From assembly GCA_948468315.1 (NCBI GenBank), contig CAOKHL010000007.1, positions 1,102-65,101 of the forward strand: 64,000 nt of DNA, given 5' to 3'. Numbering within the stretch: the stretch's first letter is position 1; each line of letters begins with the position of its first letter. This document shows, piece by piece, positions 4,321 through 26,810 of the stretch. The position numbers and the translations under genes were made by a program. The notes under the pieces are model-generated. The model searched no databases and was not told the origin of the DNA. It saw only the letters and a list, made by a program, of their open reading frames with translations. The stretch is from an uncultured Eubacteriales bacterium. GTDB lineage: Bacteria > Bacillota > Clostridia > TANB77 > CAG-508.

Positions 4321-4364
4321 ATAAAAGGGACAGGTCTTTTCGTGAAAAGACCTGTCCCTTTTAT
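4321..4364. terminator. hairpin terminator (20-bp perfect stem), same palindrome family, followed by a partial extra arm at 4365-4385
   Basis: ataaaagggacaggtctttt cgtg aaaagacctgtcccttttat immediately after the stop at 4319. Confidence 0.8.
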
Positions 4365-4615
4365 CTCTGTCCCTTTTGTCTTCTTTTTCTTTTTTTATAA
4401 AAAATTAAGAATTATCAAATATACTAAAAGTTACCACTAAATAGCAGAATAATGCAATTTTTCTATATTTTAACTACTTGCAATTTTTATGAAAGTATAA
4501 TATAATGTAAAAGTCTATAAAGACTTAAGAAAACTAAAATAAGAGACGAAAATTTTATAAAAAAGGAAGGGAGGCTATATGTTGGTTGAACACATAAGAC
4601 TAACATAAATTAGCT

Positions 4616-7333
4616 ATGAGTGATAAAAAAAGTAAAGAAAAACCAAGCAAAAAAGATAAAAAAATAAGCAATAAAAAAGAAAAAGTAAAATTTTCTAAAA
4701 AACATCCTAAACTAACTATATTCTTAAGATTGTTAATATTATTAATAGTGATATTAGCGGTAATAGGTACAGGAGTAGTTGTAGGAATGTTATATGGAGG
4801 CCTAGGTGATGACTTCGAAATAACAAAAGAAGAATTAGTAATAGGTTCTTCAAATTCAATTATATTAGACAAAGATGGAAATAAGCTAGCAGAACTAAGT
4901 GGAGATGAAAACAGAAAAATAATAAAACTAGACCAAATGCCAAAAAATCTAAAAAATGCATATGTAGCAATAGAAGATGAAAGATTTTATGACCATAGTG
5001 GTGTTGATTTCAAAAGAACAGCAGCTGCTATAGTGCAATATGTATTACATGGAGGAAAATCATCATTTGGAGGAAGTACAATAACACAACAATTAGTAAA
5101 AAACATAACAAAAGATGATGAAAGGTCAGGAAAAGAAGGAATAATAAGAAAAGTAAAAGAATGGGCAAAAGCATATCAAATAGAAAGAATGATATCAAAA
5201 GACCAAATACTTGAATTATATTTAAACATAATATTTGTTGGGGGAAATAATAATCTTGGTGTAGAAGTAGGAGCAGAATATTATTTTAACAAGCCAGCAT
5301 CTGAATTAGATTTAGCAGAATGCGCATTTTTAGCTGGAATTAACAGTTCTCCAAATTCATATAATCCATATGGAGAAAAAGATAATTCGGAAAAAATAAA
5401 AAAGAAAACGAAAACAGTACTTAACAAAATGCGTGAATTAGGAATGATAGAACAATCAGAATATGATGAAGCAAATAAAAAAGTAGATGAAGGATTACAA
5501 TTCCAAAAAACCGAATCAAAAGGATCAATATATTCATATCATACAGATGCGGCAATAGCACAAGTAATAGAAGATATTGCAAAAGAAAAAGATATTTCAA
5601 AAAGTTTAGCTTCTGCATATGTATATAGTAGTGGGCTTACTATTTATTCAACACAAGACACAAATCTTCAATCACAAATGGATGAAATAATGGTAAAAAA
5701 TAGTGGTGAATATACAAGAAATTCGAAAAAAGTAGAAGGAACAACTTCACAATCAGCAATGGTAATAATAGACAATGAAACAGGGTATGTTGTTGGAGTT
5801 GAAGGAGGACTTGGAGAGAAAAAAGAATCAAGAGGATTAAATAGAGCAACACAAAGTACAAGACAAACAGGTTCCTCAATAAAACCATTAACATCTTTAG
5901 TTCCAGGAATAAATGAAGGAACAATTACAACAGCAACAATATATGATGATAGTGAAACAGACTTTAAAATAAAAGGATGGAAACCAAAAGACTATAATGC
6001 ATTTAAAGGACTAATAAGTGTTAGAAGTGCAGTAACAACATCTCAAAATATACCATTTATAAAAATAGTATCAGAACTTACACCAGCTAAATCAGTAGAA
6101 TACTTAGAAAGGATGGGAGTTACATCAATTAATAAAGAAAAAGATGGATTAGCAGCAGTATCAATAGGTGGATTTACAAATGGTATTACTCCACTTGAAA
6201 TGGCAGGGGCATATGCAACAATAGCAAATAAGGGAGTATACAGAAAACCAGTATTTTATACAAAAGTTACAGACCCAGATGGAAATACAGTTCTAGAGTC
6301 AAAACAAAATCAAGAACAAGTAATATCAGAACAAGCAGCATATGTAATAAAAGACATGTTAAAATCAGTTGTACAAAGTGGTACAGCAACATATTGTAAA
6401 ATATCAGGAATGGATGTAGCTGCAAAAACAGGTACAACAAATGATAATTACGATAAATGGTTATGTGGATTTACAAATTATTATACAGCAGCTTGTTGGT
6501 ATGGATTTGACCAAAATGAAGAAATAAAAGGTTCAACAAATGTAGCAGGAAGAATTTGGGAAGCTGTAATGAAAAAAGTACATTCAGGAAAATCAGGTTC
6601 AAGATTTGATAAACCATCAGGAGTAGTATCAGTATCAATTTGTAGAAATTCAGGTAAAAAAGCAACAAGCAAATGTACAGACACATATCAAGAAATATTT
6701 GTAGAAGGAAAAGTACCAGGAGACTGTGATGGTCATGCAAATTCAGCACAAATCTGTAATGAAACAGGACTACGTGCAAATGAATACTGTCCAGAAAAAG
6801 TAACAAAATATTATTCTTATACAGTAGAAAAAGAAAGATTATCATTATGGAATACATCAAGCTCAAGCTCTAAAAATCCACCAGAAGGATATTGTAATGT
6901 ACACAATGCATCAAACTCTGGAAGTCAAAACCAAAATAGTGATAAAGAACCAACAATAACTTTAAATGGTGAAAAAAGTATTACAATAAATGTTGGAGAC
7001 ACATATTTGGAACAAGGAGCAACAGCAAAAGACGAAAAAGATGGAGATATATCAAGTAAAATAGAAATATCGGGAACAGTAAATACATCTAAAGCTGGAA
7101 AATACACTATTAGCTACACTGTAAAAAATTCTAGTGGAAAAACAGCAACTGTAAAAAGAACTATTACAGTAAAAAGTAAAACTCCAGATCCAAAACCAAA
7201 TGAAACACCAGACACAAACACGAATTCAAACACAAATGCAAATGTAAATGTCCCACCAAATGGAACTGGAACAGGAGGTTCGACAGGTGGAAGTACAGAC
7301 ACAACTAGTGGTGGTACAACATCAGAAGAATAG
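4616..7333 (+). CDS. class A penicillin-binding protein (glycosyltransferase plus transpeptidase) with a long C-terminal extension
   Basis: EDERFYDHSGVD and GGSTITQQLVKN (GT51); STRQTGSSIKP and KTGTT (transpeptidase); N-terminal TM segment. Confidence 0.9.
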   Translation: MSDKKSKEKPSKKDKKISNKKEKVKFSKKHPKLTIFLRLLILLIVILAVIGTGVVVGMLYGGLGDDFEITKEELVIGSSNSIILDKDGNKLAELSGDENRKIIKLDQMPKNLKNAYVAIEDERFYDHSGVDFKRTAAAIVQYVLHGGKSSFGGSTITQQLVKNITKDDERSGKEGIIRKVKEWAKAYQIERMISKDQILELYLNIIFVGGNNNLGVEVGAEYYFNKPASELDLAECAFLAGINSSPNSYNPYGEKDNSEKIKKKTKTVLNKMRELGMIEQSEYDEANKKVDEGLQFQKTESKGSIYSYHTDAAIAQVIEDIAKEKDISKSLASAYVYSSGLTIYSTQDTNLQSQMDEIMVKNSGEYTRNSKKVEGTTSQSAMVIIDNETGYVVGVEGGLGEKKESRGLNRATQSTRQTGSSIKPLTSLVPGINEGTITTATIYDDSETDFKIKGWKPKDYNAFKGLISVRSAVTTSQNIPFIKIVSELTPAKSVEYLERMGVTSINKEKDGLAAVSIGGFTNGITPLEMAGAYATIANKGVYRKPVFYTKVTDPDGNTVLESKQNQEQVISEQAAYVIKDMLKSVVQSGTATYCKISGMDVAAKTGTTNDNYDKWLCGFTNYYTAACWYGFDQNEEIKGSTNVAGRIWEAVMKKVHSGKSGSRFDKPSGVVSVSICRNSGKKATSKCTDTYQEIFVEGKVPGDCDGHANSAQICNETGLRANEYCPEKVTKYYSYTVEKERLSLWNTSSSSSKNPPEGYCNVHNASNSGSQNQNSDKEPTITLNGEKSITINVGDTYLEQGATAKDEKDGDISSKIEISGTVNTSKAGKYTISYTVKNSSGKTATVKRTITVKSKTPDPKPNETPDTNTNSNTNANVNVPPNGTGTGGSTGGSTDTTSGGTTSEE

Positions 7334-8841: not shown

Positions 8842-9849
8842 ATGAGTAAAAAAAGAATAGTAACAGGAGATAGGCCAACAGGAAAGCTTCATATTGGGCA
8901 TTACTTTGGTTCCTTAGTAAATAGAGTGAAAATGCAAGACGAATATGACCAATATATATTAGTAGCAGATGTTCAAGCATTAACAGATAATTTTAATAAT
9001 CCAGAAAAAGTAAGAAACAATGTAAAAGAGCTAGTAATAGATTATTTATCTTGTGGTATAGACCCAGAAAAAACTTGTATTTATATACAATCAATGATAC
9101 CTGAAACAGCAGAACTTACAGTATTTTATTCAAATCTAGTTACAATATCAAGATTACAGAGAAACCCAACAGTAAAAACAGAAATAGCTCAAAAGAAAGA
9201 ACTATTTGGGGAAAGTGTAACATATGGATTTTTAGGATATCCTGTAAGTCAAGCAGGAGATATAACTGTACTTGGTGGGGAAATAGTACCAGCAGGAGAA
9301 GACCAAGAACCATTAATAGAGCAATGCAGAGAAATAGTTAGAAAATTCAATTCTATTTATGGAGAGGTCTTCAAAGAGCCAGAAATATATTTATCACAAA
9401 ACAAAAGAATAAAAGGACTAGATGGTAATGAAAAAATGGGAAAATCATTAGGAAATGCTATATACATATCTGACTCAGAAGAAGAAATAACAAAAAAAAT
9501 AATGAGTGCAGTAACAGATCCAAACAGAATAAAAAAAGATGATAAAGGAAATCCTGATATATGTATGGTATCATATTATCATAAACTATTTAGTTCAGAA
9601 CAAGAATGTAAAACAGTTTGCGAAGAATGTAAAGCTGGAAAAAGAGGATGTGTTCAATGTAAAAAAGAGCTAGCAGCAAATACGATAGAATTTTTAAGAC
9701 CTATGAGAGAAAAAAGAGAATACTTAGAAGCACACCCAGAAATAATAGAAAAAGTTCTAAGAGAAGGAACTGCAAAAGCGAAAAAAGAAGCAGAAGAAAC
9801 AATGAAAAAAGTAAAAAAAGCAATGAAGTTAGATTACTTTTGCGATTAA
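8842..9849 (+). CDS. trpS: tryptophan--tRNA ligase (Cys-rich C-terminal variant)
   Basis: TGDRPTGKLHIGHY, KMGKSLGN; RBS gggggaaaac upstream. Confidence 0.9.
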   Translation: MSKKRIVTGDRPTGKLHIGHYFGSLVNRVKMQDEYDQYILVADVQALTDNFNNPEKVRNNVKELVIDYLSCGIDPEKTCIYIQSMIPETAELTVFYSNLVTISRLQRNPTVKTEIAQKKELFGESVTYGFLGYPVSQAGDITVLGGEIVPAGEDQEPLIEQCREIVRKFNSIYGEVFKEPEIYLSQNKRIKGLDGNEKMGKSLGNAIYISDSEEEITKKIMSAVTDPNRIKKDDKGNPDICMVSYYHKLFSSEQECKTVCEECKAGKRGCVQCKKELAANTIEFLRPMREKREYLEAHPEIIEKVLREGTAKAKKEAEETMKKVKKAMKLDYFCD

Positions 9850-9970
9850 ATCCCTAAAAAAGAACCGGTACCAAACAAGGAAATAGCTAATTCCCTAAAA
9901 AAGAACCGGCACCAAACAAGGAAATAGCTAAATCCCCAAAAAAGAACCGGCACTAAACAGGGAAATAGAA
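9848..9970 (+). repeat. three tandem 41-bp units (AAATCCCTAAAAAAGAACCGGCACYAAACARGGAAATAGCT) filling the trpS-argS spacer
   Basis: Units at 9848-9888, 9889-9929, 9930-9970. Array starts on the trpS stop codon and ends in the argS SD aaaggag. Confidence 0.9.
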
Positions 9971-9980
9971 AGGAGAAAAA

Positions 9981-11690
9981 ATGACAGATTTTAAAGAGTT
10001 AATATCAGACGAAATTGCAAATGTAGTAGGAATAGGAAAACAAGAATTATTAACATATATAGAGGTTCCAAAAGATATAGCAAATGGAGATTATGCATTT
10101 CCATGTTTTAGGCTTGCTAAAGCTTTGAAAAAAGCACCACAAGTAATTGCAAGTGAAATAAAAGAAAAAATTAAATTAGATGAAAACTATTTTTCAAAGA
10201 TGGAAGTTGCTGGGGGATACCTAAACTTCTATATAAATAAAAATATACAAATAATGGATGTATTAACAAAAGTAGGAAATGGTGCAGAATATGGAAGGTC
10301 AGAATTAGGAAAAGGCAAAAACATAGTAATTGACTATTCATCACCTAATATTGCAAAGCCATTTCACATAGGACATTTAAAAACAACTGTAATAGGAGGA
10401 GCATTATATAATATTTATAAATATTTGGGGTATAATGTAATAGGAGTTAATCATCTAGGAGATTATGGAACACAATTTGGAAAGTTGATAGAAGGCTATA
10501 AAAGATGGGGAAACGAATATGATTTAACTGAAAATGCTATTGATAAACTAGCAGATATTTATAAAAGAATAGATGGATTGTGTAAAGAAGATGAAGAAGT
10601 TTTAAACAAATGCCGTGAAAACTTTAAGCTTTTAGAACAAAATGATGAATATTGTACTAAAATTTGGAATGAATTTAAAGATTTAAGTATAAAAGAATTT
10701 CAAAAGATTTATGACTTACTTGGTTCTAAGTTTGACTCATGGAATGGAGAAGCTTTTTATGCAGACAAAACAGATGAAGTAATAGATATATTAAATAAAA
10801 CTGGAAAATTAGTAGAATCTGAAGGAGCAAGAATTATAGATTTAACAGAAAGTGGAATAGAAACACCATGTATAGTATGTAAATCTAATGGTTCAACAAT
10901 ATATGCAACAAGAGATTTAGCGGCAATTCTTTATAGAGCAAGAACATATGATTATGATAAATGTATATATGTTACTTCATATGAACAAAATCTTCATTTT
11001 AAACAAATATTTGAAGTAGCAAAACTTTTGGGGTTAGATGAAAAATATACCAGAGGATTAGAACATGTATCATATGGAATGGTTAGACTTCCTACAGGAA
11101 AAATGTCTACAAGAGCTGGAAATTTTGTAAAAATAGAAGATTTATTAACTAATACAATAAATAGAGCAAAAGAGATAATATCAGAAAAAAATCCTAATCT
11201 CGAAAATAAAGAAGATGTTGCTAAAAAAGTTGGAATTGGAGCAGTTATATTTAATAATTTATCAAGTAGTAGAATGAAAGACGAGGTATTTGATATAAAT
11301 GAAATGCTTAATTTCCAAGGTGAAACAGGGCCTTATATTCAATATACTTATGTTAGAACAAAAAGTGTATTAGAAAAAGTAGGAATGGTTCCAAAAGCAA
11401 GCGATATAAAAGCTCAAAACTTGACTGATGAATATTCTTTGAAATTAATAAATATTATATATAATTTTGAAGATATTTTAAAACAAGTAATAGAAAAAAG
11501 TGAACCATCAATTTTATCAAGATATTTAATAGATTTAGCAAAAGCATATAGTGCATTTTATAATGAAAATAAAATTATATGTGATGATAAATCTTATCAA
11601 GATGCAAGAGTTTATTTAACATATGCAGTTGGAAAAGTTTTAAAACAAGGAGCAAAATTACTTGGAATAGAAATGCCAGACAAAATGTAG
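9981..11690 (+). CDS. argS: arginine--tRNA ligase
   Basis: SSPNIAKPFHIGHLKTTVIG; MSTRAGNF (KMSKS-equivalent); length 569 aa. Confidence 0.9.
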   Translation: MTDFKELISDEIANVVGIGKQELLTYIEVPKDIANGDYAFPCFRLAKALKKAPQVIASEIKEKIKLDENYFSKMEVAGGYLNFYINKNIQIMDVLTKVGNGAEYGRSELGKGKNIVIDYSSPNIAKPFHIGHLKTTVIGGALYNIYKYLGYNVIGVNHLGDYGTQFGKLIEGYKRWGNEYDLTENAIDKLADIYKRIDGLCKEDEEVLNKCRENFKLLEQNDEYCTKIWNEFKDLSIKEFQKIYDLLGSKFDSWNGEAFYADKTDEVIDILNKTGKLVESEGARIIDLTESGIETPCIVCKSNGSTIYATRDLAAILYRARTYDYDKCIYVTSYEQNLHFKQIFEVAKLLGLDEKYTRGLEHVSYGMVRLPTGKMSTRAGNFVKIEDLLTNTINRAKEIISEKNPNLENKEDVAKKVGIGAVIFNNLSSSRMKDEVFDINEMLNFQGETGPYIQYTYVRTKSVLEKVGMVPKASDIKAQNLTDEYSLKLINIIYNFEDILKQVIEKSEPSILSRYLIDLAKAYSAFYNENKIICDDKSYQDARVYLTYAVGKVLKQGAKLLGIEMPDKM

Positions 11691-16022: not shown

Positions 16023-16108
16023 AATAAGAGATATAAAATAAAAGTAGCAATAAAAACAACAATTTTATTGCTATTTTTATTTTTTTTTGCTATGATATAA
16101 ATAGGTGT

Positions 16109-16189
16109 AAATCCCTGAAAAAGAACCGGCCCTTAACGAGGAATTAGCTAATTCCCTGAAAAAGAACCGGCACTAAACAGGGAAATAGA
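16109..16189 (+). repeat. two tandem 41-bp units of the same family, ending in the SD region of the gene at 16204
   Basis: aaatccctgaaaaagaaccggcccttaacgaggaattagct + aattccctgaaaaagaaccggcactaaacagggaaataga. Confidence 0.9.
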
Positions 16190-16203
16190 AAGGAAAAGAA
16201 CTA

Positions 16204-25604: not shown

Positions 25605-25904
25605 CTTTTTTTAAAACTCATATTTACTTAACAAGTATGAGTTTTTTATTTAATTCTCAGTAACAATATGAAGTGAGTTAAGATGAAATTAATGGTTATG
25701 TCAAAATTTGTCGAACGATTATTGTTGACATAAGTTATACAAGGAGTTATAATAAATAGCTGGAATGTTTTTTCAAAGAAAATTTAGAATTATTTTATTT
25801 CAGAAAAAATTTAAATCTAAAATTTATTAAAAATAAAAAGCTTAAATAATCTTGAGAAAATATTGCAAAAAAGACAAATAAATATTATAATAAGGAGGAA
25901 CTAT

Positions 25905-26810
25905 ATGGTAAAAAACAATCAACAAATATCAGAAGAAAATATTGATAAAACTAAAGAAAACAAAAAATACAATCTAAAAAATGACATAATATTTAAAACA
26001 TTTTTCTCAAGAAAAGGAAATGAAATATTTTTAATAGATTTTTTAGAGGCACTACTTAAAATAAAAATAGAGGAGATACAAGTAAAAGAAGAAGTAAATT
26101 TAGAAACACTAGCAGTAGAAGAAAAAGGTGGAAGATTAGACTTACAAGCAAAATTAAATGATGGAATAATAGTAAATATAGAATTACAAATAAAAAATCA
26201 TCAAGATATAGAAGAAAGAACGACATATTATAGTTCAAAAGTAATATCAAGGGAAACAGAAAGAGGAACAGAGTATAAAGACATAACAAAAGTAATAATG
26301 ATAAATATATTGGACTATGAATTATTAGGATTTGATGAATATATATCAGATACAGTAATAGTACTAGACAAACATAGAGAATATGAAGTATTAAAAGGAA
26401 TAAAATGGTATTTTATAGAACTACCAAAGTTTAGAAAGCAAAATCCTAATATGAATGAAAAGCTAAACCAATGGTTGGTCTTTTTAGATGATTATAATAA
26501 GGAGGCGGTAAAATTGGCAGAAGAAAAAAATGACACACTAAAAAAAGCAAGAATAGAAATGAATTATTTAACAGGAGATGCAGAAGTAAGGCGATTGGCA
26601 GAATTGCGTGAAAAGTGGGAAATGGACAGGATTTCTGAGATAGGACATGCTAAAAGAGAAGGGATTAAAGAAGGAGAGAAGAGAGGGGAAAAGAGAGGCG
26701 AGAAAAAAGGTAAAATAGAAATAGCCAAAAAGATGATTGAAAAAGGGATGAATATAGAAACAATAATAGAAATAACAGGGTTAACTAAAAAAGAAATAGA
26801 ATCAATATAG
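25905..26810 (+). CDS. Rpn-family recombination-promoting nuclease / putative transposase (PD-(D/E)XK)
   Basis: NDIIFKTFF, GGRLDLQAKLNDGIIVNIELQ, C-terminal basic repeat GEKRGEKRGEKKG plus IAKKMIEKGM; RBS aaggagg before ATG 25905. Confidence 0.7.
   Translation: MVKNNQQISEENIDKTKENKKYNLKNDIIFKTFFSRKGNEIFLIDFLEALLKIKIEEIQVKEEVNLETLAVEEKGGRLDLQAKLNDGIIVNIELQIKNHQDIEERTTYYSSKVISRETERGTEYKDITKVIMINILDYELLGFDEYISDTVIVLDKHREYEVLKGIKWYFIELPKFRKQNPNMNEKLNQWLVFLDDYNKEAVKLAEEKNDTLKKARIEMNYLTGDAEVRRLAELREKWEMDRISEIGHAKREGIKEGEKRGEKRGEKKGKIEIAKKMIEKGMNIETIIEITGLTKKEIESI

Follow-up and report, generated by a model that had tools for sequence, protein, structure and literature searches.

Tandem 41-bp repeats that abut native Shine-Dalgarno sequences in an uncultured Clostridia lineage: a probable family of small interspersed repeats

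What are the short tandem repeats that occupy several gene spacers of an uncultured gut Clostridia bacterium, and what do they do to the genes that follow them? In the 64-kb stretch of contig CAOKHL010000007.1 analysed here (the window), a 41-bp unit occurs nine times, in four head-to-tail arrays of 3+2+2+2 units, all of them intergenic and on the + strand. A first-pass annotation, made from the letters alone, had described every unit as able to fold into a hairpin and the element as the apparent source of the Shine-Dalgarno (SD) sequence of the next gene. Our best reading is that these small interspersed tandem repeats form an undescribed family, whose behaviour comes closest to that of MIRU (mycobacterial interspersed repetitive units) and of the boxB module of BOX. 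With a rough probability of 0.55, we consider it a propagating repeat that is tolerated in its present position and orientation and has modest secondary effects on mRNA. The analysis covered 64 kb of the host genome and about 115 kb from relatives, with six independent loci overall. The four arrays of the window are the following:

9848..9970, + strand: array 1, units 9848-9888, 9889-9929 and 9930-9970, the repeat-derived part reaching to about 9968; 92% of the trpS>argS spacer
16109..16190, + strand: array 2, units 16109-16149 and 16150-16190; 5' untranslated region (UTR) of a transglutaminase-like gene
36800..36881, + strand: array 3, units 36800-36840 and 36841-36881; 84% of the mnmA>copZ spacer
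39432..39513, + strand: array 4, units 39432-39472 and 39473-39513; 5' UTR of the first GT4 gene

Profile and pattern searches agree on the nine copies at the four loci of the earlier annotation, in the orientation of the genes and with none inside a gene. Tandem Repeats Finder reports a period of 41 with 90-92% matches for two of the four arrays; the unit pattern has 5 matches in the window against 0 in 100 shuffles, and the unit core pattern 10 matches against 0.8 expected from shuffles. A profile built from the nine units found no further copy on either strand of the window, and walking outward past both window ends found no additional array. Array 1 is identical in other metagenome assemblies (L032-34, L082, L083 and L085) and arrays 3 and 4 are also present in the independent assembly L086, array 3 without any difference. 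Recovery from several independent assemblies of one species shows that the arrays do not stem from assembly errors. The contigs L035, L036 and L073 break within or at the edge of an array, which is the expected behaviour of a dispersed repeat. The gene names given before agree with Pfam (trpS>argS, transglutaminase-like, mnmA>copZ-copA and GT4), and the genes downstream of the four arrays are functionally unrelated. The intergenic regions that hold arrays 2 and 4 are longer, and these two arrays are confined to the 3' part. The window has a GC content of 26.8%, and its GC and AT skews are strongly positive throughout, so that the + strand is the leading strand. The contigs ERZ28622191 scaffold_711 and JGI 3300051405 Ga0531673 mark samples in which the species is present. 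Exact matches to its sequence come from metagenome assemblies only, while the relatives carry spoIIAA/AB-sigF, SpoIID and CotJ genes and the close homologues are named 'Clostridia bacterium' in databases; the host thus belongs to an uncultured, spore-forming Clostridia lineage.

Each unit is composed of TCCC, an invariant core AAAAAGAACCGG, YMC and a variable tail ending in GGAA. The alignment of the nine units contains 24 invariant columns, of which the core, at unit positions 10-21, is the longest invariant run:

9857..9868, + strand: example of the invariant core AAAAAGAACCGG, identical in the nine window units and in four 31-bp units of L091

These 31-bp units (ATGTCCCAAAAAGAACCGGTCCCAATGGAAC) come from a third species (L091/L092), which carries 2+2 of them. 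In two species with only about 79% identity between their ArgS proteins, 13/13 intact units have the core unchanged, while the period and the flanks differ. One L091 array is found in the pyrB leader, where two units start directly after a promoter-like TTGACA-18-AAAAAT; the other two units lie on the minus strand in the spacer between POR-gamma and ferredoxin, in the orientation of these minus-strand genes, and close with ATAGAAAGGA ahead of the ATG. Each of the two arrays is sense-oriented and reaches to the SD. At both loci L075 retains decayed orthologous copies, including a perfect 10-bp palindrome GAACCGGTTC, and at pyrB no copy is found in L089 and L187. In the roughly 178 kb of DNA from the clade, all six independent loci are intergenic, sense and SD-abutting (6/6). 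The minus-strand array of L091 suggests that the orientation follows transcription and not replication, provided that both L091 loci, which are 5 kb from each other, lie on the same replichore.

Do the arrays belong to the genes behind them? Upstream of argS no unit is present in L088 (ArgS 92% identical; trpS not seen upstream), L074 (90%) and L075-77 (79%), and the mnmA>copZ spacer of L087, with a CopA 81% identical, has 49 nt of unrelated sequence and no unit. Since they are absent from the orthologous spacers of relatives, we regard the arrays as recent lineage-specific insertions and not as conserved leaders. The short native 5' UTRs of the clade, for instance that of pyrB in L089, would partly explain why an insertion seems to 'fill' its spacer. 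Neither conservation upstream of orthologous argS or copZ nor covariation, as a riboswitch or conserved leader would show, was found; the view that the element is dispersed and lineage-restricted and not a pathway-specific riboswitch is thus borne out, both by the unrelated genes and by its absence from relatives' spacers.

Database searches agree with the first-pass annotation, which had recognised no known motif. Rfam returned a single tRNA for the whole window at the gathering threshold, noise far below gathering scores for array 1 at E<=10, and nothing for the L091 arrays at E<=1. Searches with AAAAAGAACCGGNNCNNAANNNGGAA of the GTDB representative genomes, JGI metagenomes and IMG/VR gave single matches in unrelated taxa, which are due to chance by profile rescoring; this pattern is too specific for the 31-bp variant, so the absence elsewhere holds for the 41-bp variant only. 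The relaxed core pattern had 94 single matches in IMG/VR, approximately the chance expectation; blastn against plasmids and phages yielded nothing relevant, and a literature search on the core sequence no relevant paper. CpG is strongly depleted in the window (CGCG 0; ACGT 20 against 152 expected from base composition). The many loci before unrelated genes, the pattern of presence and absence at species and clade level, a CpG-containing core in a CpG-depleted genome and the lack of a match in Rfam, the databases and the literature together fit the behaviour of small interspersed repeats such as the pneumococcal BOX, RUP and SPRITE.

How the arrays meet their flanking genes is seen most clearly at the following features:

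9847..9849, + strand: the TAA that ends trpS and overlaps the start of array 1
36799..36801, + strand: the TAA that ends mnmA and overlaps the start of array 3
9969..9983, + strand: native SD AAAGGAG with the argS ATG (9981), outside the repeat and identical in the repeat-free L088

Two arrays begin on the upstream TAA, as had been noticed before. The C-terminus of TrpS is 3 residues shorter than in the relative L075 and that of MnmA 1 residue longer than in the relative L087, which indicates that the repeat's own T+AA now acts as the stop codon. All four arrays are preceded by TAA, the sequence of the unit junction. At their other end they stop 12-19 nt 5' of the start codon, directly against the SD. 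The common tail that had been described for three loci is exact at two (GGAAATAGAAAGGA); its place is taken by ATAGGAAAGGAAG at the third locus and by GCAGGCAAGGAG at the fourth. The idea that the element supplies the SD draws on two window arrays that are closed by the same 10-mer ATAGAAAGGA, which has no other occurrence in the window. It is contradicted by L088, which has no repeat and yet exactly the same GAAAGGAGAAAAAATG upstream of argS, SD and downstream sequence included. This makes the SD a native one, with the array lying next to it.

The other half of the same proposal, a hairpin in each unit with a 7-bp stem (TTCCCTG/CAGGGAA) and a 19-nt loop showing GAACCGG, fared no better. The stem, unit positions 3-9 with 29-35, is complete in one unit of the nine (16150-16190; -8.7 kcal/mol, z -2.45), which does favour the proposal; the remaining 8/9 single units have energies from -0.5 to -6.5 kcal/mol, no better than shuffles. 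When the stem was checked for covariation, its positions paired in 74% of cells versus 75% in column shuffles. The variation breaks pairs (C7.A31 in half of the rows, C8.A30 in two) and no compensatory changes for these C.A and A.C mismatches are seen, so that the invariant part of the stem is reduced to UCC/GGA (U4-A34, C5-G33 and C6-G32). We consider it highly improbable that the units act as individual hairpins delivering a ribosome-binding site.

What pairs in the predicted structures are neighbouring units, through the palindromic CCGG, through TCCCT with AGGGA of the next unit and through the junction palindrome GGAATTAGCTAATTCC. In the modelled folds it is the whole array, not the single unit, that folds, and it does so differently on the two strands:

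Array 1: sense -25.9 kcal/mol (z -2.95); antisense -45.5 kcal/mol (z -6.0)
Array 2: sense -22.3 kcal/mol (z -2.7); antisense -33.9 kcal/mol (z -6.0)
Array 3: sense -19.3 kcal/mol (z -0.9); antisense -33.4 kcal/mol (z -4.6)
Array 4: sense -27.9 kcal/mol (z -0.5); antisense -30.8 kcal/mol (z -2.6)

The same asymmetry is present in the L091 arrays. Pairing of the CCGG arms of adjacent units scores 9.1/10 in the antisense strand and 7.2/10 in the sense strand, and the antisense strand folds better because the A.C mismatches of the GAACCGGYMC arms in the sense RNA turn into G.U pairs in the antisense RNA. In the sense-strand minimum-energy folds the SD and the start codon are unpaired in 4/4 cases. 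The antisense strand presents a long hairpin followed directly by UUCUUUUU, a U-run, and so resembles an intrinsic terminator; a terminator scanner reports antisense sites at 36848-36830 of the window and at 5247-5259 of L091. On the sense strand of the arrays neither a terminator-like site nor a U-run was found.

Thus, we propose the following explanation, the steps of which are conditional. The repeat would be propagating or selfish DNA, spread by a transposition or recombination route, with its number of units raised by slippage or unequal exchange. Its arrays would occupy transcribed non-coding spacers, from an upstream stop codon or predicted transcription start to the native SD, where the sense RNA, A-rich and weakly structured owing to its A.C mismatches, would leave the ribosome-binding site unpaired. 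In a reversed array the CCGG arms would close a long and stable hairpin with UUCUUUUU behind it, a putative terminator in the mRNA, and selection would eliminate reversed copies that separate a gene from its promoter or from the gene upstream. If the antisense strand terminates transcription as its predicted fold suggests, we infer that this would be a sufficient account of the sense-only orientation upstream of genes. The side effects on host mRNA may be a stop codon for the upstream gene, a longer 5' UTR or intercistronic spacer and a modest change in stability.

Several observations weigh against this explanation. No array among the six loci is placed downstream of a gene or between convergent genes, the positions in which parasitic repeats usually accumulate (PMC3049150), and the gap between array and SD is 0-2 nt in every array. 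The comparison of strains revealed no copy-number variation of the arrays. As no transposase, terminal inverted repeats or target duplications of the element were identified, mobility has to be argued from presence and absence only. The invariance of the core points to a sequence-specific constraint beyond neutral drift, one that could serve either the propagation of the element or a host function. Finally, the base is narrow: six independent loci in the host and relatives' DNA specified above. As for purifying selection, L086 and the window offer no contrast between arrays and flanks, the flanks being essentially identical too. Since the propagating-repeat reading leaves the core invariance and the abutment to the SD unexplained, two alternatives keep some weight, one acting on RNA and the other on DNA.

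According to the first, the arrays are cis-acting RNA platforms in which the core AAAAAGAACCGG and the purine-rich GGAA bind a trans-acting protein or small RNA, tuning translation initiation or mRNA stability; in another version they are a 5' stabiliser or processing module. The effect would then be comparable to that of STAB-SD, reportedly described by Agaisse and Lereclus in 1996, Firmicute 5' stabilisers that block RNase J1. The core that stays the same despite a 41 or 31 bp period, the sense and SD-abutting placement at every locus, the minus-strand operon included, and the unpaired ribosome-binding site are all in agreement with such a platform, and so is the start of arrays 2 and 4 and of the L091 pyrB array at a predicted 5' end of the mRNA. 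For the two window arrays this prediction is based on the first two of these features:

16068..16096, + strand: promoter-like TTGCTA-17-TATGAT with TG before it, directly 5' of array 2; a consensus match only
39395..39403, + strand: extended -10-like TGTTATAAT, 5' of array 4; read by eye, the two-hexamer scan did not report it
39405..39431, + strand: small 5' hairpin GGACAAAAGGGACAGGUCUUUUGGUCC adjoining array 4, which re-uses one arm of a shared terminator stem motif (see below)

Array 2 starts 13 nt past the end of the promoter-like -10 hexamer. Against the platform, the genes that follow have no common function, relatives at 79-92% identity lack the arrays in these spacers, covariation is absent, the sense RNA is the poorly structured strand, and no candidate binding protein was identified. 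Moreover, one 31-bp L091 unit reads CTGCAGAAC, so GGA is not conserved there. We therefore hold an RNA platform to be possible but clearly improbable. CsrA sites (ANGGA) were discarded as an identity for the units: conservation falls on the A-rich/CCGG core, and GGA is not kept in every 31-bp unit.

Similarly tentative is the suggestion that the core is the dedicated target of a trans-acting factor, a new post-transcriptional or roadblock-type control layer that a mobile repeat would have installed just 5' of the ribosome-binding sites of unrelated genes in a gut Clostridia clade, or that the insertion machinery of a new kind of mobile element specifically targets the spacer from stop codon or transcription start to SD. 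Under either version the core, the 31/41 bp period and the SD-abutting sense placement would be functional features and not by-products of selection. If a factor does recognise the core, a mobile element would be rewiring the translation-initiation regions of unrelated genes, and the core would provide a compact 12-nt handle for finding that factor.

The second alternative acts on DNA: the arrays would be helically phased palindromic or half-palindromic sites at which a regulator, a roadblock protein, a recombinase or a methylation-dependent factor binds along one face of the DNA. The unit sites (GAACCGGTTC in L075, a perfect 10-bp palindrome; GAACCGGTCC in L091; GAACCGGYMC in the window) and the junction palindrome GGAATTAGCTAATTCC fit this proposal, as do CCGG-CCGG spacings of 22, 30, 31 and 41 bp, that is about 2, 3, 3 and 4 turns of the helix. 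The 64-kb window has 10 CCGG sites, of which 9 are inside units, and the single one outside compares with 7.4 expected under a Markov model. However, this low count mostly reflects the general CpG depletion, which also largely explains what a restriction-site account of CCGG scarcity would have claimed. Furthermore, conservation is asymmetric, with an invariant A-rich left half and a variable right half, a symmetric site would not need a strict sense orientation, and no associated DNA-binding gene was seen. A DNA-binding array is on balance even less probable than the RNA platform. A DNA uptake, Chi or parS-type signal was rejected, as its density and distribution are wrong; no sigma-70-like promoter matched inside the units of arrays 1 and 3, and for an extracytoplasmic-function (ECF)-type GAAC..CGT promoter the spacing in the units is unfit by eye.

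In position and orientation, the closest analogue that we find is MIRU. PMC12548453, which cites Supply et al. 1997, describes MIRUs that insert at start codons and preserve operon expression via a coupled internal open reading frame (ORF). The likeness lies in short direct tandem units (about 40-100 bp in MIRU) at many loci, co-oriented in gene spacers or at gene starts and in the orientation of the genes, with the flanking stop and start signals touched; this placement is found at 6/6 of our independent loci. Unlike our 41-bp units, which have no start codon, the MIRU described there contains a small ORF that overlaps the downstream gene by -4 nt. The sequences are not similar, and the hosts differ in phylum and GC content.

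Could the arrays then encode MIRU-type mini-ORFs, with a start that overlaps the upstream stop and a stop that overlaps the downstream start, so that translation is coupled across the insertion? At one 31-bp locus the answer may be yes. On the minus strand of L091, at 5214-5324, an ORF of 36 codons spans the POR-gamma>ferredoxin array, from TAATG on the POR-gamma stop to ATGA on the ferredoxin start; by sequence reading, all sense frames of the 31-bp unit are free of stop codons, and the precedent of MIRU at start codons with a coupled ORF (PMC12548453, citing Supply et al. 1997) points the same way. The MIRU-like overlapping ORF is limited to the 31-bp variant and to this single locus: the equivalent frame of the pyrB leader in L091 lacks a start codon past the predicted transcription start, and none of the window arrays has a coupled ORF. 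The 41-bp window units contain no ATG, GTG or TTG except for one strain-specific mutation at 39479, and arrays 1-3 have stop codons in all three reading frames, from which it follows that the 41-bp arrays are non-coding. A mini-ORF is thus excluded as a feature of the family, and translational coupling is a very unlikely explanation of the arrays.

Two observations on reading frames may be added. The ferredoxin ORF of L091 is also open upstream through the array, in a different frame. In the last unit of array 4 the window has A at 39479 where L086 has C (L086 11434); the A weakens the unit stem and creates an ATG, giving an upstream ORF of 16 codons (MKKNRPLTGNCRQGEI) whose TAA overlaps the GT4 start codon (TAATG).

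The repeat shares less with other families. The pneumococcal BOX, RUP and SPRITE elements are species-restricted, are read as parasitic, affect co-transcribed genes through their structure and can modify gene ends, and they are enriched between convergent genes (PMC3049150). Like them, the present repeat is small, interspersed and restricted to a clade of low-GC Firmicutes, and it shares with them an internal tandem module (boxB of BOX, about 45 bp), co-transcription with genes, a structure dependent on orientation and the capacity to modify gene ends. It differs from BOX in that a single unit type occurs, with no boxA or boxC terminal modules around it, no terminal inverted repeats and no copy-number variation seen among strains, and in that all arrays lie upstream of a gene, abutting the SD. 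With REP/BIME and MITEs (miniature transposable elements with inverted repeats; ERIC, Correia and RUP-type) it has in common short intergenic sequences richer in GC than the genome, possible hairpins in transcripts and a potential influence on mRNA stability or termination. REPs, however, are stable imperfect palindromes in inverted pairs and linked to RAYT, whereas here the nine units are direct repeats on one strand with weak single hairpins. No RAYT (Y1 transposase) turned up in general Pfam scans and gene tables of the DNA at hand (64 kb of host). MITEs are bounded by terminal inverted repeats and flanked by target-site duplications; the two ends of our arrays have no more than TCCCT/AGGGA (5 bp) in common, and by reading of the sequence no target-site duplication was found in the flanks of the four arrays. 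The earlier label of a REP/BOX- or MITE-like element is accordingly right about a dispersed repeat, but strict membership of REP, BOX or MITE is not supported, as inverted pairs, terminal modules, long terminal inverted repeats and target duplications are absent. CRISPR does not apply either, since the units are contiguous head to tail and have no spacers.

A further parallel is offered by the STAR elements of Staphylococcus aureus, also a low-GC Firmicute, in which a short GC-rich core recurs every ~40 bp in intergenic regions with AT-rich sequence between; the core sequence is different. STAR elements are not known to adjoin ribosome-binding sites or to be strictly co-oriented with genes.

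If the repeat is an ordinary interspersed one, it would explain the contig breaks in the assemblies of this lineage and could serve as a strain or species marker. It would also be a clean example of how a strand-asymmetric structure, with A.C on one strand and G.U on the other, can hold a repeat within transcribed spacers to one orientation. Two lessons for annotation follow: an apparent 'hairpin unit' can stem from pairing between neighbouring units, and a repeat running into an SD need not supply that SD.

Besides its decayed CCGG-core units, the pyrB leader of L075 (19961-20043 and 19793-19861) contains about 2.3 tandem copies of a 38-bp unit with small hairpins (GUGCAAGAAAUAUGCAC), and upstream a terminator-like sequence of 33 bp is duplicated. 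The fold of the complete leader has a z of -5.8, and it has no Rfam match. A PyrR binding site was rejected for the hairpin, as Rfam gives no PyrR match.

A second motif of the window, AAAAGGGACAGGTCTTTT, forms near-perfect terminator hairpins after two genes (1281-1318 and 4322-4362). Half copies are found at 4366-4376(-), 33439-33482 and 39407-39424, and other intergenic regions repeat the motif as single arms or direct copies, with 9 matches versus 1.0 expected. It looks like a terminator family of shared sequence or another small dispersed repeat.

Several genes appear to be split or frameshifted in the metagenome assemblies, namely a sufS-like gene (window 33473-34643) and pyrB (L075 20067-20982). 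L084 lacks part of trpS and 2/3 repeat units, and P0001 is an ArgS with internal duplications; both had been candidates for further DNA of the same species and were set aside as misassemblies. These anomalies are probably errors of assembly or consensus, and copy numbers taken from such contigs call for caution.

The remaining observations concern the rest of the window. GATC is strongly avoided (24 against 111 expected under a Markov model), which suggests pressure from a GATC-specific restriction-modification system. The only mobile-element-like gene seen, at 25863-26810, encodes a 'transposase' of the PD-(D/E)XK nuclease family (PDDEXK_2, Rpn-like) with a purine-rich internal tandem repeat at 26652-26719; it has no demonstrated link to the 41-bp repeat. 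Finally, copA (37114-39312) is 96.3% identical to its counterpart in L086 while the flanking genes are 99.7-100% identical, a difference that suggests an import by recombination confined to copA.

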